Source: Verrucomicrobiota bacterium
GTDB taxonomy: Bacteria > Verrucomicrobiota > Verrucomicrobiia > Opitutales > Opitutaceae
Length of the DNA stretch: 37,308 nucleotides
Reading direction: 5' to 3'
Assembly: GCA_043743635.1 (NCBI GenBank)
Contig: JAYTWC010000571.1
Span: 1 to 37,308, forward strand
The notes under the pieces are model-generated. The model made no database searches. It saw nothing but the letters and a program-made list of their open reading frames with translations, and was not told the DNA's origin. Of the stretch, positions 6,890 to 30,000 are shown piece after piece (position 1 is the stretch's first letter; the number at the start of each line of letters is the position of its first letter). The position numbers and the translations under genes were made by a program.

Positions 6890-6893
6890 TCCC

Positions 6894-9800: not shown

Positions 9801-10406
9801 GCTTACCTCCGTGAAGAGGAGGCTAACTTCGCCGATCTCCCCTCAGCCGCCGTGCAGCCGCTGCGCGATCTCGCCTCCTCCTCCGCACCTTATCGCGGCC
9901 AGGTGCTGCCGTTGGCACGAACGGCGCTCACGCAAGTCCGCACCGAAATCGCCAAACGTCTGGAAGCCGAACGGACCACCGCGCTCGGAATCCTCGACGA
10001 GCGCGAGACTCAACTCCGGAGCACTCCAGAATTCCAAGGGCTCAACGACACCTCGATCCAACAAGTGCTGCGCCTGACCTCCGAGGCTCGGAAAACAATC
10101 AAAGAGGCCCGCTTCATCCCGGCGATTCGCGACCGCGTCTCGCGCTATACGGCGCAGGATTATCCCACCCAACTTGCCGTTGCCTCTAACTATGCCGCAG
10201 CTACCAAAAGCGCGGCATCCAGTCCTTTACCTGGAGCGGTCCAGGAAAGCCCGACGAAATCGCCGACCTACGTCGCTGCCACCTCCCTCCGCGCTTCCTG
10301 CGGCCTGTCCTACATCGCGAACGAGGCCGACCTCGACAAGTGGCTGGCTGCCTTGCGGTCGACCGCCGCCGCTGAACTGGCCAAGGGCAATCGGATCAGT
10401 CTTTGA
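6894..10406 (+). CDS. brxC: BREX ATPase BrxC/PglY (P-loop NTPase)
   Basis: 1170 aa from ATG6894, 4 nt after the brxB stop. Walker A is GFFGSGKSH and Walker B is RLNFFVDEAG. Size and position are typical of type 1 BREX BrxC. Confidence 0.9.
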   Translation: MQIQQLFAKPVDRPIEGVIKADDSRHLRTELEEYVVTAEINKGLGEFCERYLNETNANGVWISGFFGSGKSHLLKILSLILDQSPLEGGGRAADLLLPRIEDEILRGELSRITKIPSRSILFNIDQKSDAIGGDRGSPVLEVFVKVLNELQGYYAQLPYVAQFEADLDARGQLAPFKAAYLKATGRSWEKDLPTINTLENEDFAKVYAEFFSKAYDEGLRLFDRARESYRVSIESFAQRVQAYLAKQGKDFRLNFFVDEAGQFIGQDTKLMLNLQTIAESLSTVCKGRAWVLVTSQGDLQRVLGELDGAAAQDFTKIQARFKTRLTLTSADVREVIQKRLLAKKEPEPEVLTSIFDTEKDNFQTLLRFGDGSVEYKGWRGSDEFCAFYPFHPYQFDLFQRAIEQLSRHNAFTGKHTSIGERSMLSVFQEVIKQLKQDPVGRLASFDKFFEGIATALQGQLLTSVRQAERQLDNPVAIRILKALFLLKWVREFKATPRNIAILLLDQPTVDIRAHEKTVHEALALLEGQSYLQHHGECYEFLTDVEKDIEVEIKNTDIDDSALAKLVSDILYADILRDPKIRYEGNGQDYAYVRRLDDELMGRDGDLAVNIITTEHTNHGDLGVLAAQNTGKPELLVVLPPDARMMDEARLILKTNKYIQHNTGLDIDAARRSILTQRGQQNSVRRTNLQELCSELLGKAPLFLNGSRLSDIGEGDARNRLAKGCQALISFAYPSLRMLRGNYDEPMLAKTLLDADDLLAAGGMALSEAEQEVLTYVMRNQASGERTSVEAIVRELGRRPYGWYPLAIVTLLARLFRLGKVELRTAELLDARSALEALRNPRQHGSVRVRPQETFDASKVNALKRFHQDFFDRTNLGTDPRSAGLATVSAFATEKTILKDLLAQSTRYPFLSTLDSVAERIGKLADRDYAHVINQLPEFQDPLLDAKQDLLDPVKSFMAGAQRTAYDEAIAYLREEEANFADLPSAAVQPLRDLASSSAPYRGQVLPLARTALTQVRTEIAKRLEAERTTALGILDERETQLRSTPEFQGLNDTSIQQVLRLTSEARKTIKEARFIPAIRDRVSRYTAQDYPTQLAVASNYAAATKSAASSPLPGAVQESPTKSPTYVAATSLRASCGLSYIANEADLDKWLAALRSTAAAELAKGNRISL

Positions 10407-10537
10407 ACTCAACATTCAAGAACGATCCGCATTTCTCGTTGTGCGAAAATAATTTGTAAGCTATTACCCTCCATTTAACTAAACTTATAAAGCACGATAA
10501 ACTTGAATAGTTTACCGTGCATTGTAAGTATATCGTC
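10407..10537 (+). promoter_or_regulatory. AT-rich 131-bp spacer inside the BREX operon, candidate internal promoter/operator
   Basis: This is the only markedly AT-rich intergenic stretch inside the operon. It contains repeated TTGTAAG (10454-10460, 10522-10528) and TAAACTT motifs just upstream of the wHTH gene. No promoter elements were assigned with confidence. Confidence 0.35.
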
Positions 10538-11524
10538 ATGGTATCGCTCAAAGACCGGCTGATAAAGCATGTGGAAGCCCTCACCGGTGATCGCCTTGAT
10601 CTGTCCGCGAAGGAGGCTTCGTCACTGCCCTTGTTCCTACGCGAAAGGTATGCGGTGTTTTCCGCCCGGTTGTTTGGGCGAAAATCAATCATAGCCCTTG
10701 AAGCTGAAGGCTGGGAGATTGGGTCACCCGGCGAATATCGAAAGCATGCGGACGCCCTCAGCCAAACTCTCAATGAGCCGGTCGTGTTGGTTCTGCCAAT
10801 TCTCCCGTCCTATGCCAGAAATCGGATGGTCCAGATGGGCGTTCCGTTCATTGTCCCGGGCAGCCAAACCTTTCTCCCCGCCGGCTTGATTGATTTGCGT
10901 GAGCGGTTTGCCCAGCCCGGTCTCAAACGGCGCGAAACCCTCAGTCCTGCCGCGCAATGCACCCTCCTCTACCACCTGCTGCGCGGCCCGCTCGCAGGCA
11001 GGCCGCTCAAGGAGATCGCGGAGAAACTGCACTACTCGCCGATGATGATCACGAAGGTGAAAGACGAGTTTGAGGCGGCAGAAATCTGCCAGATTGTCCG
11101 GAGCGGTCGCTCAACCGTCTTGAATTTCACCGCAACCGGGTACGACCTTTGGAAACGCGTTGCTCCTCATCTGACTTCCCCCGTCAAAAAAACGCGTTGG
11201 GTAAATTGGGGTAAGCCAACAGCCCCCGCATTGCTTGCCGGGATGAGCGCGCTGAGCGAGCGCACCATGATCAGCGCCGAGCGCCTGCCCACCTATGCCC
11301 TGACGCTCACGGCCTATCAGGACCTGTTGGAGCGAGGGGGCATGGCAGGTTGCCGCGATGCCGAGAGCGCGACGGCAAGCATTGAGGTCTGGTCCTACAA
11401 TCCGCACCTCTTCGGCGACGTCCGGATGGTGGACCCGCTCTCCCTCTACCTGAGTCTCCGTGCGACAGAAGACGAGCGCGTTCAGCAGCAGCTGAATCGG
11501 CTTATCGAGGAGGTCAAATGGTAG
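10538..11524 (+). CDS. wHTH protein, AbiEi-like antitoxin/regulator candidate
   Basis: Track ORF starts at GTG10517, but ATG10538 (MVSLKDRL) is preferred. There is a central winged-helix-like segment (LLYHLLRGPLAGRPLKEIAEKLHYSPMMITKVKDEF) and a C-terminal VDPLSLYLSLRATEDERV motif like the partners of AbiEii NTases. Its 3' end overlaps the next gene by 7 nt. Confidence 0.55.
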   Translation: MVSLKDRLIKHVEALTGDRLDLSAKEASSLPLFLRERYAVFSARLFGRKSIIALEAEGWEIGSPGEYRKHADALSQTLNEPVVLVLPILPSYARNRMVQMGVPFIVPGSQTFLPAGLIDLRERFAQPGLKRRETLSPAAQCTLLYHLLRGPLAGRPLKEIAEKLHYSPMMITKVKDEFEAAEICQIVRSGRSTVLNFTATGYDLWKRVAPHLTSPVKKTRWVNWGKPTAPALLAGMSALSERTMISAERLPTYALTLTAYQDLLERGGMAGCRDAESATASIEVWSYNPHLFGDVRMVDPLSLYLSLRATEDERVQQQLNRLIEEVKW

Positions 11525-12300
11525 GGGGCCTCGATCTTTTTCGTGAGCGTTTCAAAGAATTTGAAGGCTCCTTTGTCCTGATTGGTGGAGCTGCCTGCGA
11601 CGAGTGGTTTGGGACCGCCGGGCTGGAATTCCGGGGCACCAAGGATCTCGATATCGTCCTGATCATCGAAGTGCTGTCCCCGGCTGCCATCAAGGCGCTG
11701 CGGACGTTTGTCTCCGACGGAGGTTATGAGATTCGCGAAAAAACCGAGGGAGTTCCAGTGCTCTATCGTTTTGCCAAGCCTAAGAACGAAGCTTTCCCAT
11801 ACATGCTGGAGTTCTTCAGCCGCAAACCTGAAGGCATCCAACTGGGCGAGAAGCAGGGCATCGTTCCCGTGCGGGCCGATGCAGATCAGCACAGCTTGTC
11901 GGCCCTGCTGCTGGATGACGCCTACTATTCGTTGATCCAAAAACACCATGCCGTTCACGACGGGCTCCCCTTTGCCACCGCGACCGCGCTCATTCCCCTG
12001 AAGGCCTTGGCCTGGCACAACCTGACCCGAGACAAAGCCGCCGGGCTTAAGGTTGATTCAAAGAATATCACCAAGCATCGAAACGACGTCTTCCGCCTAG
12101 CCGGCACTCTGCCCGGCCAGCCAGGTCCAGAACTGCCAAAGTCCATTACGGACGAGCTCGACCGTTTTCTCCATTCCTTCCCAGAGAAATCACCGGAATG
12201 GCCATCGATCCTCGCTGCGCTGAAAAACACCTTGGGCGGCAGGATTCAACCGGCTGCCTTGCGCTTGGCGATTCAGGTCTTTTTCCGTCTCACTCCATGA
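11518..12300 (+). CDS. Pol-beta-fold nucleotidyltransferase, AbiEii/AbiGii-like toxin candidate
   Basis: 260 aa. The NTase signature is FVLIGGAAC...GTKDLDIVL (GG-x-A ... D-x-D). Its stop overlaps the pglX start (ATGA at 12297-12300). Confidence 0.6.
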   Translation: MVGGLDLFRERFKEFEGSFVLIGGAACDEWFGTAGLEFRGTKDLDIVLIIEVLSPAAIKALRTFVSDGGYEIREKTEGVPVLYRFAKPKNEAFPYMLEFFSRKPEGIQLGEKQGIVPVRADADQHSLSALLLDDAYYSLIQKHHAVHDGLPFATATALIPLKALAWHNLTRDKAAGLKVDSKNITKHRNDVFRLAGTLPGQPGPELPKSITDELDRFLHSFPEKSPEWPSILAALKNTLGGRIQPAALRLAIQVFFRLTP

Positions 12301-15300
12301 ACCTTTCCGCCCTCAAGACCTTCGCCCCCGCCGTTCGCCTCCAACTGATGGAGGCTGTCACGCGCAAACTGGACTTCGTACTGACCGGGGACACCGCCGA
12401 TCTGCGCGCCATGAGCGCTCAGCGCGCGGTCTTGCGCGGTGAGGCCACGCGGAACCGTGCGGGGCTTGTCGAACGCGTCGCCTATATTTGGTTCAATCGC
12501 CTGGCTGCGCTTCGTTTCATCGATGCACAGGGTTGGCATCCGTTTGGCGCTCGCGTGCTCACCGCCAAAACCAGTGACGAGACCCAACCTGAACTCCTCC
12601 GTCTGGTTCGTTCCGGACAACTCCCCGCGGAGCTCGCACCGCACACCGATCCTGACCGGCTCAATCGCCTGCTCGATGGCGAGCTACCCTCGCCGAACCC
12701 GCAGGCCGAGGTTTATCGTCACCTCGTGCTCGCCGCCTGTCGCTTTTATCACGCATTGCTGCCCGCGCTGTTTGAAAAACTCGACGACGAAACCGAACTG
12801 CTCCTGCCCGACGATTTGCTCACGGAGCATTCTGTCGTTCACGGTTTCCGCACCGCAATCGCCGACGCCGACTGCGCGGAGGTCGAGATCCTGGGCTGGC
12901 TGTATCAATTCTATATTTCGGAAAAGAAGGACCAGGTCATGGCGCGAAAGAGCGCGGTACCCACAGAGGATATCCCTGCGGTCACCCAGCTTTTTACTCC
13001 GCATTGGATAGTTCGGTATCTCGTGGAGAATTCCCTCGGACGGCTTTGGTTGCTCAATCGGCCGCAGTCGAAACTCCGGGAAAAGATGCCTTACTATATC
13101 GAAGGTGAACCGGAGGCAGATTTCCTGAAGATCGGCAAACCGGAGGAAATAAAAATTATCGATCCGGCCTGCGGCAGCGGGCACATGCTCACGTATGCGT
13201 TTGATCTGCTCCAAGCGATCTACGAGGAAGAAGGTTATGCTCCGTCCGATATCGCGGGGTTGATCCTGCGGCACAATCTCCACGGCGTGGAAATCTGTGA
13301 TCGCGCCGCCACCCTCGCTGCCTTTGCGCTTTGCATGAAGGCGCGCAGCTGCGACAAGCGCTTCTTCAGCCGCGTGGCCCAACCGCAGATAATCGCTTTG
13401 CAGGAAGTGCGCTTTGAAGAAGGCGAACTTTCGGCCTATTTCAGTGCGCTCGGTGCTCAGCCTTCAACGCTCCACCCTGAATTCACTCGACTCCTCAACC
13501 AATTCGAAGAAGCCAAGAATTTCGGGTCGTTGATTCAACCCTGTCTGACCGAGCCGGAGATTCAGCGTGTCCGTTCCGAGATCGAAAATCGTAAATCGAA
13601 AATCGTAAACGACGCCGACCTCTTGGTCGGCGCGACGCACCTCAAAGTCCTTCGCGTGCTCGAACAAGCCCAGGCCCTCACCCAGCGGTATCACGTCGTC
13701 GTGGCTAATCCGCCGTATATGGGGAGCGGCTCGATGAATACAGGGCTAAAGACTTACGCAGAGACGTACTATGCGAGGTCACAATCAGACCTTTTCGCTA
13801 TGTTCATCGAAGCTAACCTCCGGTTGTCGCGATCTGGTGGCTATGCCGCTCTGATAACGATGCATAGTTGGATGTTCATCTCGTCCTTCGAAGAATTACG
13901 AAGTGCTTTAGTTACCCAGCACGCATTCCTGTCAATGATTCATCTCGGGCCTCGTGCCTTTGACTCAATTGGTGGGGAGGTCGTCCAGACGACCGCTTTC
14001 GTGCTTCAAACACGAAGGCCTACTAAACGCACGACTGTATTCAAGAGGCTTACGAAAGGCGCCTGTGAAGCGGAAAAACGGGCCCTATTTGAGGTGGAAG
14101 CTAACACCTACGTCCGCCCTGTTAACCTGTTTGAATGTGTTCCAGGGAAGCCTTTCGCGTATTGGGCAAGTCCGTCGCTTTTAACTGCCTTTAAGAAGGG
14201 CACTGCTCTTGGGGAGCTTGGTAAGCCAAGGAAGGGGCTCGTGACACTGGACGACCGCCGATTCACACGGAGCTGGTGGGAAGTAGATGGTTGTAATATC
14301 GCGCTCGGCTGCAAGACCCGCAACGCAGCAAAGGAGACGCAAAAAAAATGGTTTCCAATAAATAAAGGGGGTGGTTTCCGGCGATGGTTTGGTTTTGCTG
14401 AGCAAGTCATCAACTGGTATCGCGACGGAGAGGAACTCAAGTCATTCATCGTCAGTCGCTATGGCGGCGGATCATATACCAAAGAAATTCGCAGTGAAGA
14501 ATACTATTTCAAACCGTCAATAACGTGGGGAAAAATAAACACCACGGCGCCGAGCTTTAGAGTCAGCCCAGGTGGATTCATCATGGGAGATGCGGGCCCC
14601 TGTATATTTATCGAGCTGGATTTGCTTCCAGTTCTTGGCCTACTGAACTCCAAAGTAAGCCACTCAGTTATCGAGTTGCTGTGCCCGACAGTGAACGCAG
14701 GTTCTGGTGACATCTCGAAAATACCCGTGTTGTTTGCCCCGAGCCGAAGTGATCACGGAACGGTAGTATCGGAGGCCGTAACGATTTCGCGCGCCGACTG
14801 GGACAACTTTGAGACCTCATGGGATTTTCGCGACCAGCCGTTGCTGCGGTCGGGGCTGAAGGGCGCGACGCTGGAGACGAGCTGGCGGAATTGGGAGGCG
14901 CAGAGCACCGCCGCCATCCGGCGTATGCAAGAATTGGAGACGGAGAACAATCGGCTCTTTATTACCGCCTACGGCCTCAACGGCGAATTGTCGCCGGAAG
15001 TGCCCGAGGAGCAAATCACCCTCGCCCGCGCCGACGCCCGCCGCGACATGGCCGCGTTCCTCTCCTACGCCGTCGGCTGCATGATGGGCCGCTACTCGCT
15101 CGACCTCCCCGGCCTCATCCTCGCCGACGCCGGCGCGACCGTGCAGGACTACCTAGCCAAAGTACCCAAACCAACCTTCGTTCCCGACGAGGATGGCATC
15201 CTGCCCGTACTCGACGGCGAATGGTTCGAGGACGACATCGTCAGCCGCTTCCGCGAATTCCTCCGCGTGACCTTCGGCGACGCCACGCTCAACGAGAATA

Positions 15301-15773
15301 TCCGCTTCATCGAAGAGTCACTCGGTCGAGATCTCCGCAAATACTTCCTCACCGACTTCTACAAGAACCATCTTCAAACCTACAAGAAGCGCCCCATTTA
15401 CTGGCTCTTCCGCAGTCCGAAAGGTGCCTTCGCCGCGCTGGTCTATCTGCACCGGATGACCCGCGACACGCCGAACCTGATTCTCAACCGCTACCTCCGC
15501 GACTACCTGCAAAAACTCCGCGCCCGCCTTGAGCACCTCGTCCACGCCGAAGCCACCGCCGGCACCGCCCGCGAAAAAACCGCAGCGCGCAAAGAGAGCG
15601 ATCAGCTCAAGAAAAACCTCCGCGAATGTGAAGAATGGGAACGCGACGTGTTGTTGCCCCTGGCCCAAAGCCGCCCCGAACTCGACCTCGACGACGGCGT
15701 AAAGGTCAACTACCTCAAACTCGGCGAAGCCCTCTCCCCCATCCCGGGTCTGGCGACGAAGGAGGAGGACTAA
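12297..15773 (+). CDS. pglX: BREX N6-adenine DNA methyltransferase PglX
   Basis: 1158 aa from ATG12297 (MNLSALKTFAP...), internal to track ORF 12198..15773. SAM motif I is IIDPACGSGHML and catalytic motif IV is VVANPPYMGS. The conserved C-terminal tail is DLDDGVKVNYLKLGE. Confidence 0.9.
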   Translation: MNLSALKTFAPAVRLQLMEAVTRKLDFVLTGDTADLRAMSAQRAVLRGEATRNRAGLVERVAYIWFNRLAALRFIDAQGWHPFGARVLTAKTSDETQPELLRLVRSGQLPAELAPHTDPDRLNRLLDGELPSPNPQAEVYRHLVLAACRFYHALLPALFEKLDDETELLLPDDLLTEHSVVHGFRTAIADADCAEVEILGWLYQFYISEKKDQVMARKSAVPTEDIPAVTQLFTPHWIVRYLVENSLGRLWLLNRPQSKLREKMPYYIEGEPEADFLKIGKPEEIKIIDPACGSGHMLTYAFDLLQAIYEEEGYAPSDIAGLILRHNLHGVEICDRAATLAAFALCMKARSCDKRFFSRVAQPQIIALQEVRFEEGELSAYFSALGAQPSTLHPEFTRLLNQFEEAKNFGSLIQPCLTEPEIQRVRSEIENRKSKIVNDADLLVGATHLKVLRVLEQAQALTQRYHVVVANPPYMGSGSMNTGLKTYAETYYARSQSDLFAMFIEANLRLSRSGGYAALITMHSWMFISSFEELRSALVTQHAFLSMIHLGPRAFDSIGGEVVQTTAFVLQTRRPTKRTTVFKRLTKGACEAEKRALFEVEANTYVRPVNLFECVPGKPFAYWASPSLLTAFKKGTALGELGKPRKGLVTLDDRRFTRSWWEVDGCNIALGCKTRNAAKETQKKWFPINKGGGFRRWFGFAEQVINWYRDGEELKSFIVSRYGGGSYTKEIRSEEYYFKPSITWGKINTTAPSFRVSPGGFIMGDAGPCIFIELDLLPVLGLLNSKVSHSVIELLCPTVNAGSGDISKIPVLFAPSRSDHGTVVSEAVTISRADWDNFETSWDFRDQPLLRSGLKGATLETSWRNWEAQSTAAIRRMQELETENNRLFITAYGLNGELSPEVPEEQITLARADARRDMAAFLSYAVGCMMGRYSLDLPGLILADAGATVQDYLAKVPKPTFVPDEDGILPVLDGEWFEDDIVSRFREFLRVTFGDATLNENIRFIEESLGRDLRKYFLTDFYKNHLQTYKKRPIYWLFRSPKGAFAALVYLHRMTRDTPNLILNRYLRDYLQKLRARLEHLVHAEATAGTAREKTAARKESDQLKKNLRECEEWERDVLLPLAQSRPELDLDDGVKVNYLKLGEALSPIPGLATKEED
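15660..15737 (+). repeat. Direct repeat copy A (functional pglX 3' tail) matching 19456-19533
   Basis: Hand alignment gives 70/78 nt identical to 19456-19533, in the same reading frame (LAQSRPELDLDDGVKVNYLKLGEALS vs LAQSRLELDLNDGAKVNNLKLGESLS). Confidence 0.8.
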
Positions 15774-15777
15774 ACCC

Positions 15778-16977
15778 ATGGCCGACGATGCATCACAATT
15801 TTCGGCATCCGAGCCCGCACTGGGTTACTTGTATCAAATTCGATACGCTTTGCTGGAGGTTTTTCACCAGCCGGAGGAATCCGTCTGCTATATAGAAAAA
15901 GACGATGATGTAGATTTCAGCGATCCGGAGGAAGGCCGCATCCTAGCATCACTGAAGCATAAGGCACCCGGTGACACGCTTACGAATTTGTCGCCCGACT
16001 TTTGGAAATCAGTGCGCATTTGGCTAACCGATTACCTTAAAGATCCGGATTCTATAGTCCCGGCACGTTATTATTTGGTTACCACGGGAAAGGTTCAGAT
16101 TGGGTCGTTGCTAGCTTCATTTTTGCCGAACGCTCAGCCACCAGGAGATCTTCAAACCCAGATCGACGGGGTACTCGCTAGCTCCACATCGAAGACGATA
16201 AAAAAGACCCGCGATCTATTGGCTTTGCTCCCCCCGGCAAAATGGAGCCATTTTTTCCAGCGGATCACTATCTTCGATATTCAAGAAAGGATTAACGAGA
16301 TACCCCAGCGGATCATGAGCGGATTTCGATCAGTTCGTCCAAAATTCCGCCTTCCCGTTTATCAACGTCTAGTGGGATGGTGGGATGAGGAGTGCATCAA
16401 GCTCTTAACCGGCCAACGCAAGGAGCCGTTCCGCGGCGCAGAAGTATCTGAGATGCTCAGTTTTTTTTCGGAGCAGTTTCGAGATGACAATCTCCCAATC
16501 GATTTCGAAAAAGCCGAACCCGAAGGCGGCGTAAATCCTGATTCGGATAACCGGTACTTCGTTAAACAGCTTCGAGCGATCGGGCTTAAATCAGACCGCA
16601 TTACCAGAGCGATTCTCGACTACTATCGCGCCTCAGAACAACGCGGCGCGTGGCTCCGTGAAAACGTCACGCTCGACGGCGAGGTAGAGAGATACGACGA
16701 TCGGTTGGTTGAGGAGTGGGCTCGCATTCGCGAGATCACCTTCGAAGACCTAAGCGACGACGCTTCCGAAGAAGTGCTTCAGCAATTGGGCAAAAAACTG
16801 CTGACCGACCTTTCAACACGAGATAATCCCAATCTCCGCATTCGGAGGGAGGTCACGGCGAGCTTCGTATCAATGGGCAGCTATCATATCCTCGCCAATG
16901 ATACGTGTCCACGGGTACACTGGCACCCCCGTTTCACAGAACGCGTCGCCGAAATTCTCCACGGGAGGAAAACATGA
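15778..16977 (+). CDS. ABC-3C effector component: DUF4297/Cap4-type PD-(D/E)xK nuclease N-domain plus ABC-3C C-terminal domain
   Basis: 399 aa starting 4 nt after the pglX stop. The N-terminus GYLYQIRYALLE...CYIEKDDDVDF...ASLKHK matches the DUF4297 nuclease pattern. It is the first gene of an ATGA-coupled triplet with a middle component and a DUF3732 ATPase. Confidence 0.7.
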   Translation: MADDASQFSASEPALGYLYQIRYALLEVFHQPEESVCYIEKDDDVDFSDPEEGRILASLKHKAPGDTLTNLSPDFWKSVRIWLTDYLKDPDSIVPARYYLVTTGKVQIGSLLASFLPNAQPPGDLQTQIDGVLASSTSKTIKKTRDLLALLPPAKWSHFFQRITIFDIQERINEIPQRIMSGFRSVRPKFRLPVYQRLVGWWDEECIKLLTGQRKEPFRGAEVSEMLSFFSEQFRDDNLPIDFEKAEPEGGVNPDSDNRYFVKQLRAIGLKSDRITRAILDYYRASEQRGAWLRENVTLDGEVERYDDRLVEEWARIREITFEDLSDDASEEVLQQLGKKLLTDLSTRDNPNLRIRREVTASFVSMGSYHILANDTCPRVHWHPRFTERVAEILHGRKT

Positions 16978-17465
16978 AAACGTGGGACAAACGACCTCGC
17001 GAAGTTCGCACCCTTTTCAACCCTGCCTTCTGCGGATTGGTTTTGGCCAGAGGGATCGAGGGCTTCGCCACAGAAGCCGGCCGCCCCATGCCATTTTCGC
17101 TAACATTGTTGATCCTTCCACTGTGCTTGCACAAACGAACCCGCGAGCTGCTCAAAGACGCCAATCGATCTTACCTGACGAACATTCTTCAGGAGCATCC
17201 AGAGATTCGCGTCGATCTGGCGCAACGGGCTCGCGGTTTGTTTTCCTACACCATGGAGGCGTTCGCCTATCTCATGGCGTGCGAGGTCATTGAGGTAGAC
17301 GGCAGCGGAGGGATAGCCTTGCGCGCCGACGCCCGCGTCAGGAAAACCATTGCTGGGTCTCAGGACACTAAAGACTGCCAAACCGTAGCTCGTGCCTTGG
17401 GCACAAAGCTGGCCCGGATCAATGATCGGGCGACCATTTATACAACGCTAGGAATCAGACCATGA
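16974..17465 (+). CDS. ABC-3C middle component
   Basis: 163 aa from ATG16974, internal to track ORF 16905..17465, with GGAGG upstream and ATGA overlap with the upstream stop. MKTWDKRPREVRTLFNPAFCGLVL...LTLLILPLCLHKRTRELL is typical of three-component ABC system middle components. Confidence 0.65.
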   Translation: MKTWDKRPREVRTLFNPAFCGLVLARGIEGFATEAGRPMPFSLTLLILPLCLHKRTRELLKDANRSYLTNILQEHPEIRVDLAQRARGLFSYTMEAFAYLMACEVIEVDGSGGIALRADARVRKTIAGSQDTKDCQTVARALGTKLARINDRATIYTTLGIRP

Positions 17466-19408
17466 ATATACGCGATATCGTAATCTACAGCCACACCGGC
17501 GACATCAGGCGGATCACCTTCAAGATTCACGGCCTCAACATCATCACCGGCCGATCTTCTACCGGCAAATCGGCGCTCTCGGACATCGTCGAATATTGCA
17601 TGGGGCGCAGCGACTTTAATATCCCCGAAGGTCCCATCCGGGACAAAGTTGCTTGGTATGCAGTGATTTTCCAGTTTAGCGGCGAACAAGTCTTGATCGC
17701 CAAACCTGCCCCGGCATCCAACGCAGCCAACTGTTCGAGAGCCATGATCCTGCGTGGTGCAGCGATTGAGCCACCCACATTGGGGGAGCTGAACCAGAAT
17801 TCAGACGATGAGGGGGTCAATTCGCTGCTGTCGGAATTGCTCGGCATACCCGTGGCAAAAACCGAGGTACCGGAAAAACAAAGTCGGGCTTCCTACTTCG
17901 CGTCGATCAAGCATACGCTGTTTTACCTCTTCCAAAAGCAAGGACTCATCGCCAACAAGGATCAGCTCTTTTATCGGCAGAGTGAGCCCTTCATACCGCA
18001 GACGATAAAAGACACGATGCCCATTCTGCTCGGATTGGCTGCGGACAAGCGCCTAGAAACAGACCAGAAACTTCGAATTGCCCGGCGCGATCTCAAGATC
18101 GCGCAGAAACAGTGGTCCGAAGCCGAGCAATTCAGCGAGCAACTAAGCATGCGCGCTATTGGACTCATTTCGGAGGCGCAGCAGGTGGGCATCTTGGCTC
18201 GCCGTCCAATCCCTGCCCAATCTACTGAAGCCCTGGAAGTTCTAACCGCCATCACGCAGTGGAAGCCCACCGCCATCCCCGAAGAGGATACACGTCGGAT
18301 CGCCGGGCTGGAGGACGAGATCGCAGCTCTGCGTAGGGAAAGAATCGGTGTCAGCGAAACGCTCCGGGCGACGCAGCTATTCACTGACAAAGAGGTCGGA
18401 TTTACCAACGAGGCCAACGAACAGAAAAGTCGATTGGAATCCATCCACGCACTACCTAAGCATCCCGAGACCGGTAAATGGCAATGGCCCTTCGCCCAAA
18501 AAGATCTAGGGCTCGATACCCCGATTGGAGCTGCATTGCTTCGCGAACTTGAGTCGTTGGATCAAGAATTAAATACCGTGCAAGGCGAGCGGCCGCATCT
18601 GGAACAATATACTCTCCAAGTGCACGCTCAGCTCGACGAACTGAACCAGCAGATGAAGAGTAAAACCGAGGCTCTCGACGCAGCCATCGCCGCCAACGCA
18701 GCCATCGCTGAAATGGGGAACCGAAATGCGGCTGCGGCAAGGATTGTGGGGCGAGTGAGCTTGTTTATGGAAACATATCGACCCGATGATGATCTCACTG
18801 GATTGAAGAAGCGAATGGAGGAATTGCAGGAAATCGTTGAACGATTGGAGAAGGCCACTGGTGTAGATGACGGCGCAGAGCGCCTCGCATCGACGATCAA
18901 CATCATCTCTAATCGTATCAGTCGCTATGTTAAGGAACTGGAAGCAGAATTTTCTGAGTTCCCCTTCCGTTTTGATCTAAACCACTTGACCGTAGTGGCC
19001 GATCGACCGGAGCGGCCGGTGCCTATGAACAAAACCGGCGGCGGAGCCAATCATTTGGCCTATCATTTGGGAGCGTTGCTCGCGTTACATCACTTCACTT
19101 CGAACAACCACAAGCCCATGCCGGCTTTTCTCTTTTTGGATCAGCCTACGCAGGTCTATTTTCCATCCGAGCAGGTATACAAGTCAGCGGCTGGTTCGGT
19201 TGAGGAAACGGAACGGGATTCAGATTTGGAGAAGGTGAGAAAACTATTTGCTATGCTCTACGACTTCACAACCAAGGAGGCTCCGGGATTCCAGATAATC
19301 GTTACCGAGCATGCCAATCTCCGAGATCAATGGTTCCAAGATTCCATCGTCGAAACTCCATGGACTAAGCCGCCTGCGCTGGTCCCGTCCGAATGGCCTA
19401 ATTTTTAA
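17462..19408 (+). CDS. ABC-3C ABC/SMC-like ATPase (DUF3732 family)
   Basis: 648 aa with ATGA overlap to the upstream gene. Walker A is GRSSTGKSA, followed by a long coiled-coil insert. C-terminal signature/Walker B region: GGGANHLAYHLGALLAL...FLFLDQPTQVYFP. Confidence 0.75.
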   Translation: MNIRDIVIYSHTGDIRRITFKIHGLNIITGRSSTGKSALSDIVEYCMGRSDFNIPEGPIRDKVAWYAVIFQFSGEQVLIAKPAPASNAANCSRAMILRGAAIEPPTLGELNQNSDDEGVNSLLSELLGIPVAKTEVPEKQSRASYFASIKHTLFYLFQKQGLIANKDQLFYRQSEPFIPQTIKDTMPILLGLAADKRLETDQKLRIARRDLKIAQKQWSEAEQFSEQLSMRAIGLISEAQQVGILARRPIPAQSTEALEVLTAITQWKPTAIPEEDTRRIAGLEDEIAALRRERIGVSETLRATQLFTDKEVGFTNEANEQKSRLESIHALPKHPETGKWQWPFAQKDLGLDTPIGAALLRELESLDQELNTVQGERPHLEQYTLQVHAQLDELNQQMKSKTEALDAAIAANAAIAEMGNRNAAAARIVGRVSLFMETYRPDDDLTGLKKRMEELQEIVERLEKATGVDDGAERLASTINIISNRISRYVKELEAEFSEFPFRFDLNHLTVVADRPERPVPMNKTGGGANHLAYHLGALLALHHFTSNNHKPMPAFLFLDQPTQVYFPSEQVYKSAAGSVEETERDSDLEKVRKLFAMLYDFTTKEAPGFQIIVTEHANLRDQWFQDSIVETPWTKPPALVPSEWPNF

Positions 19409-19455
19409 ATGTCCTTCCAAACGCCATCGCCGATGCACTGGAGAACATTGAGTAG

Positions 19456-19575
19456 TTGGCCCAAAGCCGCCTCGAACTCGACCTCAACGACGGCGCAAAG
19501 GTCAACAATCTCAAACTCGGCGAATCCCTCTCGCATCAACCGTCCAGAGGTAAAAAAACTGATTGGTCATCCTAG
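19456..19575 (+). pseudogene. Relic 3' end of a pglX-type methyltransferase gene (40 codons including stop)
   Basis: Reads LAQSRLELDLNDGAKVNNLKLGESLSHQPSRGKKTDWSS* and is about 90% identical at nt level to 15660-15737. It is immediately preceded by an in-frame TAG (19453-19455). Its stop lies 9 nt before the next gene's start. Confidence 0.75.
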
Positions 19576-19596
19576 ACTGCCCCAATGACTAATCAG
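19559..19596 (+). promoter_or_regulatory. 12-bp stem / 14-nt loop hairpin that sequesters the start codon of the 19585 gene
   Basis: CUGAUUGGUCAU (19559-19570) pairs with AUGACUAAUCAG (19585-19596), giving 11 Watson-Crick pairs plus one G-U. The right arm begins with the AUG. Confidence 0.4.
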
Positions 19597-20541
19597 CAGC
19601 GCATTGAAGATTTCCTTCAACCCAAACCTAGCGGTTGGTGTGACAAATGCCTGTCCATTGAACTTACCATAACGCCGACCAATCAAGTGAACGGCATATG
19701 TGCTAAGTCCCAGCTGATTTGTCGGTCGGTTGGGGTCTGTGATGGTTGCGGCGAGAATCGACAGATTAACACATTTAGACCTGACTCAGATCCGATTTCG
19801 CCCCCGCCGCGAAAACCGAAACAGGCAAAGACTAAGGTGGAAAATTACCTGCGTGAGGAAGACATCAAGGAGAGGATCAATAGCACACTGGTCGAAGCAC
19901 TCGGAATACCTGCGCAAGACTACTATTCTCAAATGGGGTTTTGTAATCTCCTCCTGCTGAAATCCGGCCTCGCTCGCATTCACGATATAATCACCCTGAA
20001 ACTCACCCTGGCACTGGTGGAACGGATGGGGCAGCGATTCAATCTCGACGAAGCCGCGTTGGCCAAACTCAGGCAATCCGTGAGCGGGATCCATCCGAAT
20101 GCCGCAGGATTTGATCTTGATATCAAAGACCCCAACCTCATCGGCGAAGTGAAGGGGAATATTCCGGTGAACAAAGGATCGACCTTTGGCGCAGACCAAC
20201 TCAAGGGGCTGAGAAACGACGTGCTTCAAATGCTAGGCCATCCTGCTCGGGCCAATGAAAAGAACGAGCCATCTGAACGAGCTAAAATCAATCGTGCCGG
20301 GCGTGATAAAGCCATCAAAGTCCTCGGTCTTTACGACTCGCCTGAAGTGAGAGCAGCCACCGACAAGTGGCGAAAGAGCCTCATGGCCTCACCAGCGTGG
20401 AAGCCGCTGAGCGTCTTCTCGATTCAGGAACTACCAGAAACCGGCAATCTCTCGCCTGATATCGTTTACCTCATATATCTCACGCCGAAGCATGGGATAG
20501 ATCCAATCACGTCTAGCCTCGCAACAAAGGAGAATGAATGA
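19585..20541 (+). CDS. Hypothetical protein: N-terminal Zn-ribbon (CDKC...CDGC) plus PD-(D/E)xK-like motif
   Basis: 318 aa. The candidate nuclease core is GFDLDIKDPNLIGEVKGNIP (D ... E-x-K). Its stop overlaps the start of the DUF262 gene (ATGA at 20538). Confidence 0.55.
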   Translation: MTNQQRIEDFLQPKPSGWCDKCLSIELTITPTNQVNGICAKSQLICRSVGVCDGCGENRQINTFRPDSDPISPPPRKPKQAKTKVENYLREEDIKERINSTLVEALGIPAQDYYSQMGFCNLLLLKSGLARIHDIITLKLTLALVERMGQRFNLDEAALAKLRQSVSGIHPNAAGFDLDIKDPNLIGEVKGNIPVNKGSTFGADQLKGLRNDVLQMLGHPARANEKNEPSERAKINRAGRDKAIKVLGLYDSPEVRAATDKWRKSLMASPAWKPLSVFSIQELPETGNLSPDIVYLIYLTPKHGIDPITSSLATKENE

Positions 20542-22733
20542 GCGTCTCCTCTGCCATCGACCCGACGGCGGGGCCTTCCAGTTTTGCTCTGCCACTACGG
20601 CATATCGCCTCCTGGCATGACATCCCTGAAATCACCGAACGTCCGCAGCCACGAGCAAGCGTGCCCGTGTTGCAACGCGGCCTCGTTTGGAACCCTGCGC
20701 AGATCGAATTACTTTGGGACTCGATTCTTCGAGGATTCCCAATCGGAGCGTTAGTTTTGAGCGCCAAAATATCGGGGCAAACCAAGGCCAATGAAGAGAC
20801 AAGAACCGATATCACACATCATTTGCTAGATGGGCAACAACGATGCGATGCTATCGCGCTTGGTTATAAAGATCCGTTCGGCACCTTGCATGGACAATCT
20901 GAAAGCAAAGCCGGCACATCCATTCTTTGGCTTGATCTCGATCCCCTAAAAAATCAGTGGAGCACGCGGGAATTCGTCGTCCGCCTGACCACGCCCTCGC
21001 ACCCGTGGGGTTATACGCGAAACGATGATGCCTTTCCGCTCGGCGCACAAATCATCCGGGAAGCTCTGAAACGTATCGGCCAAAATCCTGCGGCAGAAAA
21101 TTACCGGCGGCCGACACCCGCCGAGCTTTGTCCTCAAGCTGCGAAAACACCAGTACCCTTGGCCTGGCTGCTCCTCAATGGGCAAGAGGCTGATTTTTGG
21201 GGCACTCTGCTCACGCACTTACCGGAGAAGGATGATTTGCCGTGGCACGGCAGCCTCCGCGATTTCCTTAAGGACCCAGAGAAAGAGCCGCAACGTACAC
21301 GTATTTTGAATGCGGTCCGGCGAATCGAGCACACCAGAATCATTGGCCTATGTGCGCCAAATTTGGACTTGGATTCCCGGCAGGAGACTGAGAGTGCGCC
21401 CGAGCGCGCCAATATTTCCAGTATCGAGCACCTCTTTCAGCGGCTCAATCAGCAAGGCACTCCGCTCGACGGTGAGGAGCTGGCCTACTCTATGATCAAG
21501 GCCTACTGGCCGGAGCTCGCAAGTCCCATAGACACAATCGAGAAACCGATGCCTGCCACTCGGCTAATTTCACTTGGTATCCGCGCCGCATTGGCTGGAG
21601 AGAATCGCGAACACCTTCCCGCCGCCTTGGGAGTAAGCCAAATCCGCAAGTTGGCGGGCAAACAGGATGACCGGACATCGCTCGTATATAAATACATTAA
21701 CAATGACCTGGCGCACGGGTGCAAACGGGTGAGCCAATGGCTGCGCTACGATGCAGAGCTAAACCCGAGTGGGCTCCTTCCGGTGCATATCGCCTGTATA
21801 GCCCATGACTCGCCGGACCTTTTCCTGCTGCTACTAACCTTCGCCCAACGCCCAGACACAGATTGGCAGATCCCAGAGTCAGAGCGAGCGCGTTGCATAC
21901 AAGCCATGGCTACAGTCGTGCATTGGTTCGGTCGCGACAAACCGGCCATTGCCAACCGCCTTTTTGCGGCCTGCGGAGAGCACATCACCCACCAAAAGAT
22001 CCAACTCGCTTTAGCCGGGGCGCTGCAAGCGGGCCACCTCCGCCCTGTCCACTCTCCGAAGACAGTCGAGGCCTTTTTCCATGAAATGCCTCAGACCGTC
22101 CTTCTGAATTGGAACTGGGGGACCATAGGACATGGCGACAAGTCTGACGAAGAGCGTAAGAAAATCTGGGATCGCTGGGGCGAGTTTCTCTGGTTCAGAG
22201 ACAAGAAAGAGCTGCTCGTGTATGCCCAACGCGATTTTCTCCATCGGCGATTTCCCGAATACGATCCGGCCCGGAAAGATTTTTGGAAGGGCCACAACCG
22301 TCCGTGGGATTACGACCACATCCTGGCCAATACCTACGTTCACGGTAAGCAGGGTGATTATAAAAGCGCTTGTGCGGAATGGGTGAACACCATTGGAAAT
22401 TTCCGAGCTTGGCCGATGGAGGACAATCGTTCGGATCAAGAGGAGACCGCGCAGAAGAAAGTACCGGAGACCGATGCGACATCGAAAACAAACTCGCGAA
22501 GAGACAGTTTTCTCGAAAACGATAACCTCGCTGCATTCTCTCAGGGGCACGAGACAAGGAAGAAACCGGAACTCGCGGCGGCTTTCATCGCAGCCTGCCG
22601 CGATCGAATGCTCAGAATCTATCGGACTTGGTATGAATCGGTCGGAGTTGCAGATTTGATCACCCCAGATCAAAAACCTACTCGTGCCATTGAATCACAC
22701 CCAACCTCACTGATCGCTTCGGCGACGCCTTAA
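20538..22733 (+). CDS. DUF262/DUF1524 protein, GmrSD-family type IV restriction enzyme (BrxU-like)
   Basis: 731 aa. The N-terminal DUF262 motifs are LQRGLVWNPAQIELLWDSILRGFPIG and DGQQR. The C-terminal His-Me finger-like region is WDYDHILA...NTIGNFRAWPMEDNRSD. The position inside a BREX locus parallels BrxU. Confidence 0.8.
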   Translation: MSVSSAIDPTAGPSSFALPLRHIASWHDIPEITERPQPRASVPVLQRGLVWNPAQIELLWDSILRGFPIGALVLSAKISGQTKANEETRTDITHHLLDGQQRCDAIALGYKDPFGTLHGQSESKAGTSILWLDLDPLKNQWSTREFVVRLTTPSHPWGYTRNDDAFPLGAQIIREALKRIGQNPAAENYRRPTPAELCPQAAKTPVPLAWLLLNGQEADFWGTLLTHLPEKDDLPWHGSLRDFLKDPEKEPQRTRILNAVRRIEHTRIIGLCAPNLDLDSRQETESAPERANISSIEHLFQRLNQQGTPLDGEELAYSMIKAYWPELASPIDTIEKPMPATRLISLGIRAALAGENREHLPAALGVSQIRKLAGKQDDRTSLVYKYINNDLAHGCKRVSQWLRYDAELNPSGLLPVHIACIAHDSPDLFLLLLTFAQRPDTDWQIPESERARCIQAMATVVHWFGRDKPAIANRLFAACGEHITHQKIQLALAGALQAGHLRPVHSPKTVEAFFHEMPQTVLLNWNWGTIGHGDKSDEERKKIWDRWGEFLWFRDKKELLVYAQRDFLHRRFPEYDPARKDFWKGHNRPWDYDHILANTYVHGKQGDYKSACAEWVNTIGNFRAWPMEDNRSDQEETAQKKVPETDATSKTNSRRDSFLENDNLAAFSQGHETRKKPELAAAFIAACRDRMLRIYRTWYESVGVADLITPDQKPTRAIESHPTSLIASATP

Positions 22734-22746
22734 ATTCGATTCCCGC

Positions 22747-25251
22747 ATGAAGCGCATCCACGAAAGCCTCAAACTCGTTCTCCAGCGCCACCGGCTCGTT
22801 TTCTGGTATGACGCGACCCGCGAATGGGAGAAAGCCTACGAAGCCTTCGTTGCCGACGGAGTGCGTAAAATCACAGTCGCGGGCACGGAGTTTGGCGCCA
22901 AAGTTGCCATCCATCGTGCACCCGAGGAACGGTTCCTCGTCTATCTACCCAGCGCCCGCCCCCTCGATGCGGACAACTGGCTGCTCGATCTCTTGCTCCA
23001 GGGTCATGAGTACAAAGCCGATCGCGCTTCACTCGCATTGCAGGATGTCGGTCTTCCCTACGAACTGCGGCCCGTGATCGAGGCGCATGTGAGCTTTTTC
23101 GATTCGCCCAAACGAATTGAGACGTTGCGCGGATTGCTCGTGTCAAACGAGGAGCCTGCCTCCCTTCGGCGAAAGCTCATGGCGGTAGCGGCTGGTTCAA
23201 CTTTGCCCGAGATTGATGCCGTGTTGCTGGCCTTCCTCGCCCGCACTCAAGAAGCTCAAGGCAACGACCTGGTCGATATGGTACAAGGAACATTTGGCGG
23301 TTTTGGCTTGACCGTTCCGTTTTGGCGAGAGGTAAACCTCGCTTTCAGCTACGAAAGTGAAACGCCGTCACTGAAGGACTTTTCGCGGTCGCTCTTTCGG
23401 GCCGCCAACCCACTCGACCACGGGATAAAGCTGAGCGCACACGCGCAGGTGTTTCTCCAACACTGGAAAGACAGCCAGGCATTTAGTCCCGCCTATCGTC
23501 GTTGGGCCGCGCTGATGGAAAGCGAACTCAACCTTGACCATCAGCTGGACGCCCTGGATGACATGCGGCTGCTCGGCAATTGTGATGCCTTTCCTCTGAT
23601 GGAACGCTACGTTTTGCATCGGCTTTGCGGAGCGTTTGAGACCGACAGCCTGTCCAGCACCGAGCTACTGGCCCGCATCCAACAACGAAAGAGCTCTTTT
23701 TGGTACAGCGATCACCGTCACGGTTACGCCGCGCTGGAGCAGGCCATCGACCTTAAGCAACGGCTCGCTGGTGCTGAGTTAAGAATCGAGTCAATCGACG
23801 TCGGTATTCAGCGGTACACGACAACGTGGCATCGCATCGATACGGCCTATCGCAAGTTTCACTTCCATGCGCGCAGCTACGGTCAGATCGGGCTTTTGGG
23901 CCGAATTGCCGAACGAGTTGAAAAGACCTATCTGGCTAACTTCTTGCTACCGCTAGCAGATCGCTGGGGCGACCAAGTTGCAAAGCTGCCAGCGTGGCCA
24001 GGAGAGGTTTCGGTGGCGAAGCAGGTGGATTTCTACGACCGCTACGTGAAGCCATTTGTCGAGAAGGGACAAAAGGTCTGCGTTATTATTTCTGACGCAC
24101 TTCGATACGAGATCGGTGTGGAACTGATGGAGCGTCTGCTTGCCGAAAACCGGTGGAAAGCGGAAATCGAGCCCCTGTTAGGCGTATTGCCAAGTTATAC
24201 CCAGCTCGGCATGGCCGCACTTCTACCTGGATCGGTTCGGTCGATAAATCTCGATACCCGCACGGTGACAATCGACGGCAAGTCTTCCGCTGGCACTGAA
24301 GCCAGAAATGAAATTCTCGCGGCCGCAGTTTCATCACCGGCGGGTGCGTTGAAGGCAGAGGATTTCATGGAGATGAATACCGGGACCGAAGCTCGCGCCG
24401 TGATCCGTGATCACCAAGTCATCTACATCTACCACAATGTCATTGATGACACCGGGGACAAACTCGCCACCGAAGCACAGACCACCGAGGCGATCGAAGA
24501 GGCACTCGATGGTCTGCTAAAGCTGATAAAAAAAGCAGTGAATGCTAACGCCAGCCAGATACTGCTCACCGCCGACCACGGGTTTCTATTTCAACAAACT
24601 GATGTTTCAGAGACGGACGACTTACCGCTTCCTTCGGCCGAGTGGCTCTTCCCCCACCGGCGTTTCGCACTCGGACGCAACCTCAGGTCTTCAACGGGGG
24701 TAAAGACTTTCACCGCCGAGGCGCTCGGTCTGACCGGCGACTTTGTCGCGGCCTTCCCGCTGGCACTCGGACGATTTCCACTAAAAGGATCTGGCAAACG
24801 ATTCGTCCACGGAGGCTTCAGCCTACAGGAAGTGCTGGTGCCGGTTCTGCGTATCCATAAAACCCGTACAGACGACACTGAACGCGTCGAAATCGACCTG
24901 CTCCGAGCTCCAACCAAGATCACGACGGGACGCGTGTCGCTCACGCTTTACCAAGACCGACCGACAGCGACTAAGGTGCTCGGCCGTAACCTACGTGTGG
25001 GTATCTTCACAGTGGATGGAGTAGCCATCTCGGAACTCAAAACACTCGCGTTTGACTCAACTGAGGCAGAGGCGCGCCAGCGTGAAACCGTGATCGATTT
25101 GGCGCTCTCCCGTGCGGCCGATCCTTTCAACGGGAAAGAAGTCGAGATCCGCATTGAGGAAGTGACCGCCGGCAACCAGAATGCCCTGCCCTATAAATAC
25201 CACCGCCTGAAATTGCAGAAACCATTCGCAACCGACTTCGATGAGCTCTGA
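22747..25251 (+). CDS. pglZ: BREX alkaline-phosphatase-superfamily protein PglZ
   Basis: 834 aa. The N-terminus has RLVFWYD. PglZ-domain motifs are VCVIISDALRYEIG and LLTADHGF. It is followed by brxL with an 11-nt overlap. Confidence 0.9.
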   Translation: MKRIHESLKLVLQRHRLVFWYDATREWEKAYEAFVADGVRKITVAGTEFGAKVAIHRAPEERFLVYLPSARPLDADNWLLDLLLQGHEYKADRASLALQDVGLPYELRPVIEAHVSFFDSPKRIETLRGLLVSNEEPASLRRKLMAVAAGSTLPEIDAVLLAFLARTQEAQGNDLVDMVQGTFGGFGLTVPFWREVNLAFSYESETPSLKDFSRSLFRAANPLDHGIKLSAHAQVFLQHWKDSQAFSPAYRRWAALMESELNLDHQLDALDDMRLLGNCDAFPLMERYVLHRLCGAFETDSLSSTELLARIQQRKSSFWYSDHRHGYAALEQAIDLKQRLAGAELRIESIDVGIQRYTTTWHRIDTAYRKFHFHARSYGQIGLLGRIAERVEKTYLANFLLPLADRWGDQVAKLPAWPGEVSVAKQVDFYDRYVKPFVEKGQKVCVIISDALRYEIGVELMERLLAENRWKAEIEPLLGVLPSYTQLGMAALLPGSVRSINLDTRTVTIDGKSSAGTEARNEILAAAVSSPAGALKAEDFMEMNTGTEARAVIRDHQVIYIYHNVIDDTGDKLATEAQTTEAIEEALDGLLKLIKKAVNANASQILLTADHGFLFQQTDVSETDDLPLPSAEWLFPHRRFALGRNLRSSTGVKTFTAEALGLTGDFVAAFPLALGRFPLKGSGKRFVHGGFSLQEVLVPVLRIHKTRTDDTERVEIDLLRAPTKITTGRVSLTLYQDRPTATKVLGRNLRVGIFTVDGVAISELKTLAFDSTEAEARQRETVIDLALSRAADPFNGKEVEIRIEEVTAGNQNALPYKYHRLKLQKPFATDFDEL

Positions 25252-29920: not shown

Positions 29921-30000
29921 AAACGGCACGCTCAGGCAGCATCGTGAGTGTTCATGCTTGGCGGTGGTTCCTGTCCCAGCTAGGCTCGCTCCACCTCCAG

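Follow-up and report, generated by a model that had tools for sequence, protein, structure and literature searches.

A probable type II Lamassu cassette carried as a passenger in a Verrucomicrobial type 1 BREX operon

We analyzed a 37,308-nt stretch of DNA from a Verrucomicrobiota bacterium of the Opitutaceae (contig JAYTWC010000571.1, assembly GCA_043743635.1, forward strand; hereafter the window), which carries a three-gene cassette immediately downstream of pglX, the methyltransferase gene of a bacteriophage exclusion (BREX) system. The window belongs to a metagenome scaffold of 96.8 kb (ENA ERZ28573527). A sequence-only reading of the same DNA had described the cassette as a complete ABC-three-component (ABC-3C) conflict system encoding an effector nuclease, a small middle component and an ATP-binding cassette (ABC) ATPase. 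The three open reading frames, termed lmuA, lmuC and lmuB, are all intact on the + strand (Table 1), and the junction sequences agree with the overlaps and the spacing reported earlier. Both the lmuA/lmuC and the lmuC/lmuB junctions are ATGA overlaps, and between the pglX stop codon TAA (15771-15773) and the lmuA ATG at 15778 lie only the 4 nt ACCC. The best start of lmuC is the ATG at 16974 that overlaps the lmuA stop and has GGGAGGA upstream; a longer GTG-initiated frame opens at 16905, but the Pfam MC3 match sets in only at its residue 27, which makes the extension unnecessary. The FNPAF motif ascribed to the middle component is present in the LmuC translation, and the GKS of the ATPase Walker A is found in LmuB as part of GRSSTGKS.

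The genes surrounding the cassette constitute a complete type 1 BREX locus, with brxA, brxB, brxC, pglX, pglZ and brxL in one orientation on the + strand. This is based on Pfam matches to the BrxA, BrxB and BrxC domains, Eco57I/N6_Mtase, PglZ and BrxL_N/BrxL_ATPase, on PADLOC matches to PglX and PglZ and on an NCBIfam match to BrxL, all of which bear out the BREX context that had been proposed for the cassette. The cassette does follow pglX directly, as had been stated, but its placement between pglX and pglZ is incomplete as a description, since a gene of 318 codons (unk318) and a GmrSD-like gene also occupy that interval.

Profile searches returned a family for each of the three proteins. 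Pfam matched CTD7 to LmuA (residues 261-389, E = 1.4e-37), MC3 to LmuC (5.1e-51) and DUF3732 to LmuB (9.4e-50), each far above the Pfam thresholds, and PADLOC matched its LmuA model to residues 7-388 of LmuA (4.1e-57), its LmuC model to LmuC (2.1e-13) and its LmuB model to the full length of LmuB (6.9e-123). Homologues of all three proteins are also present in the PDB, in the form of Salmonella enterica LmuACB and Vibrio cholerae LmuABC/DdmABC. LmuA thus has an effector N-terminal domain (NTD) fused to an ABC-3C C-terminal domain (CTD), LmuC is a small protein of the ABC-3C middle-component family encoded between the effector and ATPase genes, and LmuB is an SMC/Rad50-like ABC ATPase with DUF3732 (LmuB_C) as the C-terminal half of its head and a length (648 residues) within the ~600-650 residues of its kind. 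The earlier division of the cassette into a CTD-bearing effector, a middle component and a DUF3732 ATPase is therefore upheld by the three Pfam matches.

The system formerly named ABC-3C is now type II Lamassu (10.1101/2025.06.23.660979), within which DdmABC and the Salmonella (SalEnt) LmuACB represent the 'NTD-Cap4-CTD7 and MC3' subfamily (10.1101/2025.03.14.643221). Because the window cassette shares with both of them the combination of a Cap4-type NTD joined to CTD7, an MC3 protein and a DUF3732 ATPase, we conclude that it is very probably a type II 'short' Lamassu (lmuA-lmuC-lmuB) of the Cap4-nuclease/CTD7 + MC3 + DUF3732 subfamily, residing as a passenger in a Verrucomicrobial type 1 BREX operon. 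The sequence-only reading had been unsure whether the cassette corresponded to any named system, which the PADLOC names LmuA, LmuC and LmuB now answer. It had offered a Menshen-like system as an example, and that candidate (NsnABC) was rejected, as no Menshen-named (NsnA-type) PADLOC model matched any of the three cassette proteins and the single weak NsnA match (E = 0.0015) fell on the GmrSD-like neighbor. Its view of these systems as mechanistically almost uncharacterized is outdated, since cryo-EM structures of DdmABC and Salmonella LmuACB (9HQU, 9HQX, 9HR5, 9NXX, 9NY5 and others) were published in 2025 together with a worked-out activation mechanism. The cassette itself adds one more member to a family that is already known and by now well understood, and the existing Lamassu model suffices to explain it. 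NCBIfam contained no model for LmuA or LmuC, and megablast of positions 15000-20000 found no match in E. coli genomes; the sole match among plasmids was a short segment of pglX on one from Azotobacter.

One part of the original assignment failed as a matter of profile hidden Markov models (HMMs). The HMM and PADLOC classification recovered CTD7, MC3, DUF3732 and the Lmu models but not DUF4297 (PF14130), the family to which the effector had been assigned; this model does not match LmuA, and residues 1-260 match no Pfam family at all even at E ≤ 10. In the Pfam annotation of LmuA homologues PF20283 (CTD7) is likewise the only family present (120 among the matches listed). The Cap4-type nuclease is supported instead by profile alignment and by Foldseek. 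A profile of 27 LmuA homologues aligned full length to V. cholerae LmuA (VcLmuA; 9NXX_A, E = 7e-10), and in this alignment E40, D43/D44 and K60 of the window protein stand opposite E38, D41/D42 and the catalytic K57 of VcLmuA, a lysine that the Lamassu structural literature describes as essential. Residues E40, D42-D44, D46, S58, K60 and K62 are invariant in the 27 homologues, and we regard E40, D43/D44 and S58-x-K60 as candidate catalytic residues. An AlphaFold2 model of LmuA had a mean predicted local distance difference test score (pLDDT) of 63, with the N-domain mostly at 75-90 and the active-site loop and CTD low, and was used solely to rank Foldseek hits. LmuA structures filled the first 15 places (E = 1e-7 to 2e-4); next came Cap4 of the cyclic oligonucleotide-based antiphage signaling system (CBASS; 7YIA, 1.2e-2, probability 0.97) and then the DUF4297 crystal structure 8ZGI (3e-2). 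Collectively these data suggest a Cap4-like fold with E...DD...(Q/E/S)xK residues in the LmuA N-domain; the nuclease assignment holds at the level of the predicted fold, whereas the claim of Pfam membership does not. The LmuA CTD has Salmonella LmuACB as its best PDB sequence match (6.6e-10).

LmuB aligns end to end to Salmonella LmuB (9HQU_A, 1.9e-50) and to V. cholerae LmuB (3.4e-40), and LmuC weakly matches Salmonella LmuC (9HQU_D, E = 0.022). The LmuB sequence contains a Walker A motif (G30-RSSTGKS37), a signature motif (T525-GGG-A-N), a deviant Walker B (FLFLD560-Q561) and an H-loop histidine (H617), of which the Walker A, the D-Q Walker B and the histidine proved invariant when conservation was checked in 28 and in 82 homologues. 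Short Lamassu ATPases have been defined by a Walker A of the form Gx4GK[S/T] and a Walker B of the form hhhhD[Q/S/T/E] (PMC12663957), and LmuB carries both, as G30RSSTGKS37 and FLFLD560Q561, each unchanged in the 82 relatives. It has no CxxC zinc hook, and an invariant W340-Q-W-P-F lies at the apex of its coiled coil. Throughout the LmuB subfamily (82 sequences from many phyla) residues 525-530 (~19034-19051) read TGGG(A/E)N, as opposed to the GSG of characterized LmuB proteins. When lmuB and lmuC were compared with the BREX-embedded copies in loci L004 and L084, the ratio of nonsynonymous to synonymous substitution rates (dN/dS) was 0.03-0.09 with dS saturated, a range indicating that both genes are under strong purifying selection.

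The arrangement of the genes bears on how the cassette is expressed. From brxA to beyond brxL all genes share one strand and are separated by ≤21 nt, except for 110 nt after brxC and a 176-nt scar after lmuB. A Shine-Dalgarno-like sequence is formed by the last pglX codons (Table 1), and L004, L010, L018 and L023 have the same tight pglX-lmuA junction with a Shine-Dalgarno sequence of that origin. A scan of positions 10300-23000 for sigma-70 promoters and terminators yielded no promoter-like site on the + strand and nothing convincing at the junctions, with counts that were not above those of shuffled controls. Given the 4-nt gap, the Shine-Dalgarno sequence in the pglX tail, the tight packing on one strand and the lack of a promoter-like or terminator-like site at the junction, co-transcription with BREX is plausible, and the BREX operon transcript most probably includes the cassette, with translation from the Shine-Dalgarno sequence in the last pglX codons. 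The earlier statement that its expression is slaved to the pglX transcript is plausible on the same grounds, although this is something that we infer from the layout.

The cassette is bracketed by a 76-nt direct repeat of the pglX 3' end, detected by repeat search and local alignment, whose two copies are 92% identical and spaced 3796 nt apart. The right copy has an in-frame stop ahead of it and reads as a decayed PglX C-terminus, LAQSRLELDLNDGAKVNNLKLGESLS..., and its identity is 92% to the pglX end of the window but 77-85% to the ends of other pglX genes. The tail of this copy and the following spacer are collinear with the pglX stop, spacer and unk310 ATG of the Lamassu-free locus L086. The matching empty site is present in L086-L089, which come from Verrucomicrobiota metagenome-assembled genomes and metagenomes and have the order brxC-unkA-unkB-pglX-(17-22 nt)-unk310-pglZ-brxL. 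Based on the repeat, the collinear remnant and the empty-site loci, we propose that the lmu genes were inserted together with a fresh pglX tail into an ancestral junction of pglX and unk318; the sequence marks the 76-nt repeat as an insertion or recombination scar. The G+C content at third codon positions is 0.55-0.63 in the cargo, somewhat below the 0.63-0.68 of the BREX core genes. When other BREX-embedded loci were searched for a pglX 3' remnant downstream of lmuB, it was found in the window only. The idea that the 'KEED' ending of pglX is coupled to Lamassu was tested and dismissed, since the Lamassu-free loci L086 and L088 share this ending.

Table 1. Coordinates of the cassette, its flanking repeats and the BREX genes and other cargo around it (positions in the window).
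Feature	Position	Strand	Description
brxC	6816-10406	+	Pfam BrxC domains
pglX	12297-15773	+	BREX-1 methyltransferase, 1158 aa; PADLOC PglX E = 0 (aa 34-1184 of long open reading frame); Pfam Eco57I/N6_Mtase/MmeI_Mtase
left repeat copy	15661-15736	+	inside working pglX 3' end
Shine-Dalgarno-like AAGGAGGAGGA	15759-15769	+	in last pglX codons (K-E-E-D), ~9 nt before lmuA ATG
lmuA	15778-16977	+	399 aa; predicted Lamassu effector: N-terminal Cap4-type PD-(D/E)xK nuclease domain, C-terminal CTD7 oligomerization/sequestration domain
lmuC	16974-17465	+	163 aa; predicted Lamassu middle component, MC3 family
lmuB	17462-19408	+	648 aa; predicted short SMC/Rad50-like ABC ATPase sensor
right repeat copy and decayed tail	19457-19575	+	repeat at 19457-19532; nonfunctional pglX 3'-end remnant; abuts unk318 start
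unk318	19585-20541	+	318 aa; no Pfam, PADLOC or NCBIfam match
GmrSD/BrxU-like DUF262 gene	20538-22733	+	731 aa; GmrSD_N 1e-19; PADLOC HEC-05 2.6e-14; weak GmrSD_C
pglZ	22747-25251	+	Pfam PglZ 4.1e-55; PADLOC PglZ 1.4e-234; downstream bound of embedded cargo
brxL	25241-27409	+	NCBIfam BrxL 5e-172

We surveyed the relatives of LmuB in 80 genome loci and judged proximity to BREX within 10 kb. Lamassu adjoins BREX genes in L003, L004, L005, L006, L010, L019, L021 and L023, while 70 of the 80 loci have no BREX within this distance. In addition, the L018 contig begins with a pglX C-terminus directly 5' of lmuA, and the metagenome locus L084 is arranged likewise. All BREX-adjoining Lamassu loci that could be assigned belong to Verrucomicrobiota, and in a neighbor-joining tree of LmuB they fall mostly into one clade, plus a second small one. 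In L003, L005 and L084 lmuB overlaps pglZ, so that one gene runs straight into the other. Percent identities of LmuB and PglZ to the window proteins drop together, from 81 and 75 in L084 through 74 and 55 in L023 to 57 and 38 in L021. The closest cultured homologue, from Ereboglobus luteus (L083, LmuB 84% identical), is encoded by a stand-alone cassette that lies between genes for a UvrD helicase and a phospholipase D (PLD)-family protein with an upstream gap of ~250 nt. The existence of stand-alone relatives together with recurrent embedding in BREX leads us to propose that the cassette moves in and out of BREX and has long been resident in one phylum. In L006 (9351-11950) a BrxA-like open reading frame continues into the final ~40 codons of lmuC, which are followed by an intact lmuB and then by pglZ; this appears to be a degraded BREX-embedded Lamassu from which lmuA and most of lmuC have been deleted.

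This distribution could also be read to mean that Lamassu and BREX are functionally integrated in Verrucomicrobiota, as one co-inherited and translationally coupled pglX-lmuACB-pglZ operon whose parts cooperate mechanistically. Lamassu could for example act as an executioner or back-up when BREX is inhibited or stalled, BREX methylation or BREX complexes could modulate the Lamassu trigger, or the signal sensed by Lamassu might be replication intermediates or DNA ends that accumulate as BREX arrests a phage or fails in doing so. The pglX-lmuACB junction does recur in at least eight further Verrucomicrobiota loci (L003, L004, L005, L010, L021, L023, L084 and, as a fragment, L018), extending to an LmuB identity as low as 57% that falls in parallel with that of PglZ; the operon is fully fused in the three loci where lmuB overlaps pglZ, translational coupling to pglX is likely, and the cooperating embedded systems BrxU and PrrC provide precedents (10.1101/2024.01.29.577857). 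However, such parallel divergence is equally expected from shared vertical descent within one phylum, close homologues are found apart from BREX in L083 and in L007 (LmuB 73%), as are the great majority of the genome loci surveyed, and BREX relatives free of Lamassu exist. Moreover, cloned DdmABC and SalEnt LmuACB each defend on their own (10.1101/2025.03.14.643221). We consider functional integration unlikely and favor the reading of the cassette as a type II Lamassu passenger, while noting that if the recurrent pglX-lmuACB fusion did reflect cooperation and not hitch-hiking it would offer a handle on an abortive-infection back-up of BREX.

Several observations weigh against assigning the cassette to a BREX-borne type II Lamassu. 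LmuA is only 13-20% identical to solved LmuA chains in the Foldseek alignments, its AlphaFold2 model is mediocre with low confidence in the active-site loop and CTD, and the acidic or glutamine position of its (D/E/Q)xK motif is taken by a serine, S58, that is invariant in the clade. The signature-motif serine S536 of Salmonella LmuB is needed for defense (10.1101/2025.03.14.643221), and its counterpart in the window protein is a glycine, G527, that is invariant in 82 relatives. Because of this replacement the engagement of the ATP heads may differ from that in Salmonella LmuB; as glycine occupies the position in all 82 relatives collected, we take G527 to be a trait of the subfamily. A defense function of this locus, and of any member of the LmuB subclade with the TGGG signature and WQWPF apex, is predicted by homology. 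Finally, the promoter scan relied on an E. coli sigma-70 consensus, which a promoter inside the pglX coding sequence of a Verrucomicrobial host could escape.

The serine-to-glycine change in the signature and the SxK nuclease motif, both departures from characterized homologues, together with the decaying pglX fragment that adjoins the cassette, might be taken to indicate a decaying or silent remnant devoid of defense activity. This is very improbable, as the three open reading frames are intact and retain all ATPase and nuclease motifs, dN/dS is below 0.1, and the deviations are invariant in 27-82 homologues of many phyla and thus represent subfamily traits and not lesions. That a different ABC-ATPase system (Menshen, Gabija, PARIS, Septu or Wadjet) or a CBASS Cap4 module was misread as ABC-3C is extremely improbable in spite of the use of ABC ATPases by all of those systems, the resemblance of the LmuA N-domain to Cap4 and a weak GajA match (E = 0.002), given that the strong PADLOC matches are all to Lmu models with only weak others on LmuB (PDC-S06, E = 0.0013, and that same GajA match) and that CTD7, MC3 and DUF3732 each lie far above their Pfam thresholds. 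Gabija and a pseudogene were rejected on the PADLOC Lmu matches and on the intact, selected open reading frames, and CBASS on the absence of SAVED domain and CD-NTase families from all open reading frames of the locus.

If the cassette is a type II Lamassu, its action can be modeled on that of its structurally characterized relatives (PMC12663957, 10.1101/2025.03.14.643221, 10.1101/2025.06.23.660979). By this analogy two LmuB subunits and one LmuC would hold one monomeric LmuA by its CTD7 at the folded apex of the coiled coils and thereby keep the nuclease inactive. LmuB and LmuC would recognize the DNA of an invader by its ends or by structures associated with replication, upon which slow ATP turnover by the deviant-Walker-B head of LmuB would release LmuA. 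The released LmuA would tetramerize via CTD7, with two Cap4 domains making one active site that contains K60, and the tetramer would cut DNA non-specifically and abort the infection. In such a scheme Lamassu would be an independent second, abortive-infection layer beside BREX, directed against phages and plasmids. We infer the A1B2C1 complex, DNA-end sensing, LmuA release and phage or plasmid protection for this cassette by carrying them over from 9HQU and 9NY5, and the window sequence appears consistent with the family mechanism in that nothing in it contradicts the model.

Lamassu is not the only cargo of this BREX locus. The unk318 and GmrSD-like genes overlap by ATGA. Because unk318 lies directly between pglX and pglZ in Lamassu-free relatives, it could be an accessory gene of BREX that is specific to this lineage; its family is rare, comprising 23 clusters that are mostly from Verrucomicrobiota, with one homologue (L090) outside BREX. 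The GmrSD-like gene is absent from the empty-site loci L086-L089 and for this reason appears to be a second insertion. Between brxC and pglX two overlapping genes (10517-11524 and 11518-12300) have no significant family match, and their sub-threshold matches are to the cognate families AbiEi_2 (E = 0.063) and AbiEii (E = 0.099), from which the pair may be an AbiE-like toxin-antitoxin or abortive infection (Abi) module. The pair is kept between brxC and pglX in the Verrucomicrobial BREX loci L023 and L086-L089, and in L054 it lies ~7 kb away from a Lamassu that is not in BREX. The NCBIfam collection lacks models for unk318, the GmrSD-like protein and both members of this pair.

Among the BREX proteins, BrxL combines the usual BrxL_N and ATPase domains with a C-terminus that matches MIT_C (phospholipase-D-like, 7e-34) and not a Lon-protease domain, an architecture also seen in L084 and L086-L089. 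PglX (12297-15773) is 61% identical to that of the Lamassu-free L086 (4471-7980), with a center (~residues 590-830) far more divergent than its ends, as would be expected for a variable target-recognition region. A WYL + WCX protein resembling the BrxR/CapW regulators is encoded at 29917-30993, downstream and not upstream of the BREX locus, and three small genes, including one for a DUF2726 protein (28815-29330), separate it from brxL. Rfam and tRNA scans of the window returned no match.

Taken together, the cassette can be annotated as a Lamassu LmuA/LmuC/LmuB system of the Cap4 type, for which the 2025 structural mechanism is usable as a working model. The locus is a clean natural example of defense cargo swapped into a BREX operon, for which the filled site and the duplicated pglX 3' scar can be set beside the empty site of related loci and a close homologue that stands alone, and the intervals pglX-pglZ and brxC-pglX both act as insertion hot spots. 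That BREX loci harbor other defense systems in the same orientation has been described as a general phenomenon under the name 'guilt by embedding' (Payne et al. 2024 preprint, 10.1101/2024.01.29.577857). No specific report of Lamassu inside BREX was found in the literature and supplements searched, and the scar and empty-site evidence constitutes a tidy but incremental addition.

Among known systems, V. cholerae DdmABC (Lamassu Vc-Cap4; PDB 9NXX, 9NY1, 9NY5, 9NYG, 9UXH-L) has the same gene order of effector, middle component and ATPase and the same families, namely a Cap4-like NTD with CTD7, MC3 and DUF3732. Both have a short LmuB of ~650 residues with a D-Q Walker B and no zinc hook, and the window K60 aligns with the catalytic lysine K57 of VcLmuA. 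The two differ in that window LmuA is only 13-16% identical to its V. cholerae counterpart in Foldseek alignments, the nuclease motif is QxK in V. cholerae and SxK in the window, and the V. cholerae signature IGSGAN is replaced by TGGGAN, accompanied by the conserved WQWPF apex, in window LmuB. DdmABC furthermore resides in a Vibrio genomic island and the window cassette in a BREX operon. Salmonella enterica LmuACB (PDB 9HQU, 9HQX, 9HR5) provides the best PDB sequence match for window LmuB, the LmuA CTD and LmuC; it is of the same subfamily, and its scheme of sequestration, release and tetramerization is presumably shared. A CxxC zinc hook, absent from window LmuB, is present in Salmonella LmuB and required there for defense, and the Salmonella protein carries S536 where the window protein has G527. 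As regards the BREX setting, in an unrelated BREX on an Azotobacter plasmid the brxC-pglX and pglX-pglZ intervals are likewise occupied, although by different cargo. The BREX of pEFER has BrxU embedded in it just as the window BREX locus contains a BrxU-like GmrSD gene, whereas the cargo in the window also includes Lamassu, with the insertion scar and matching empty sites still visible.

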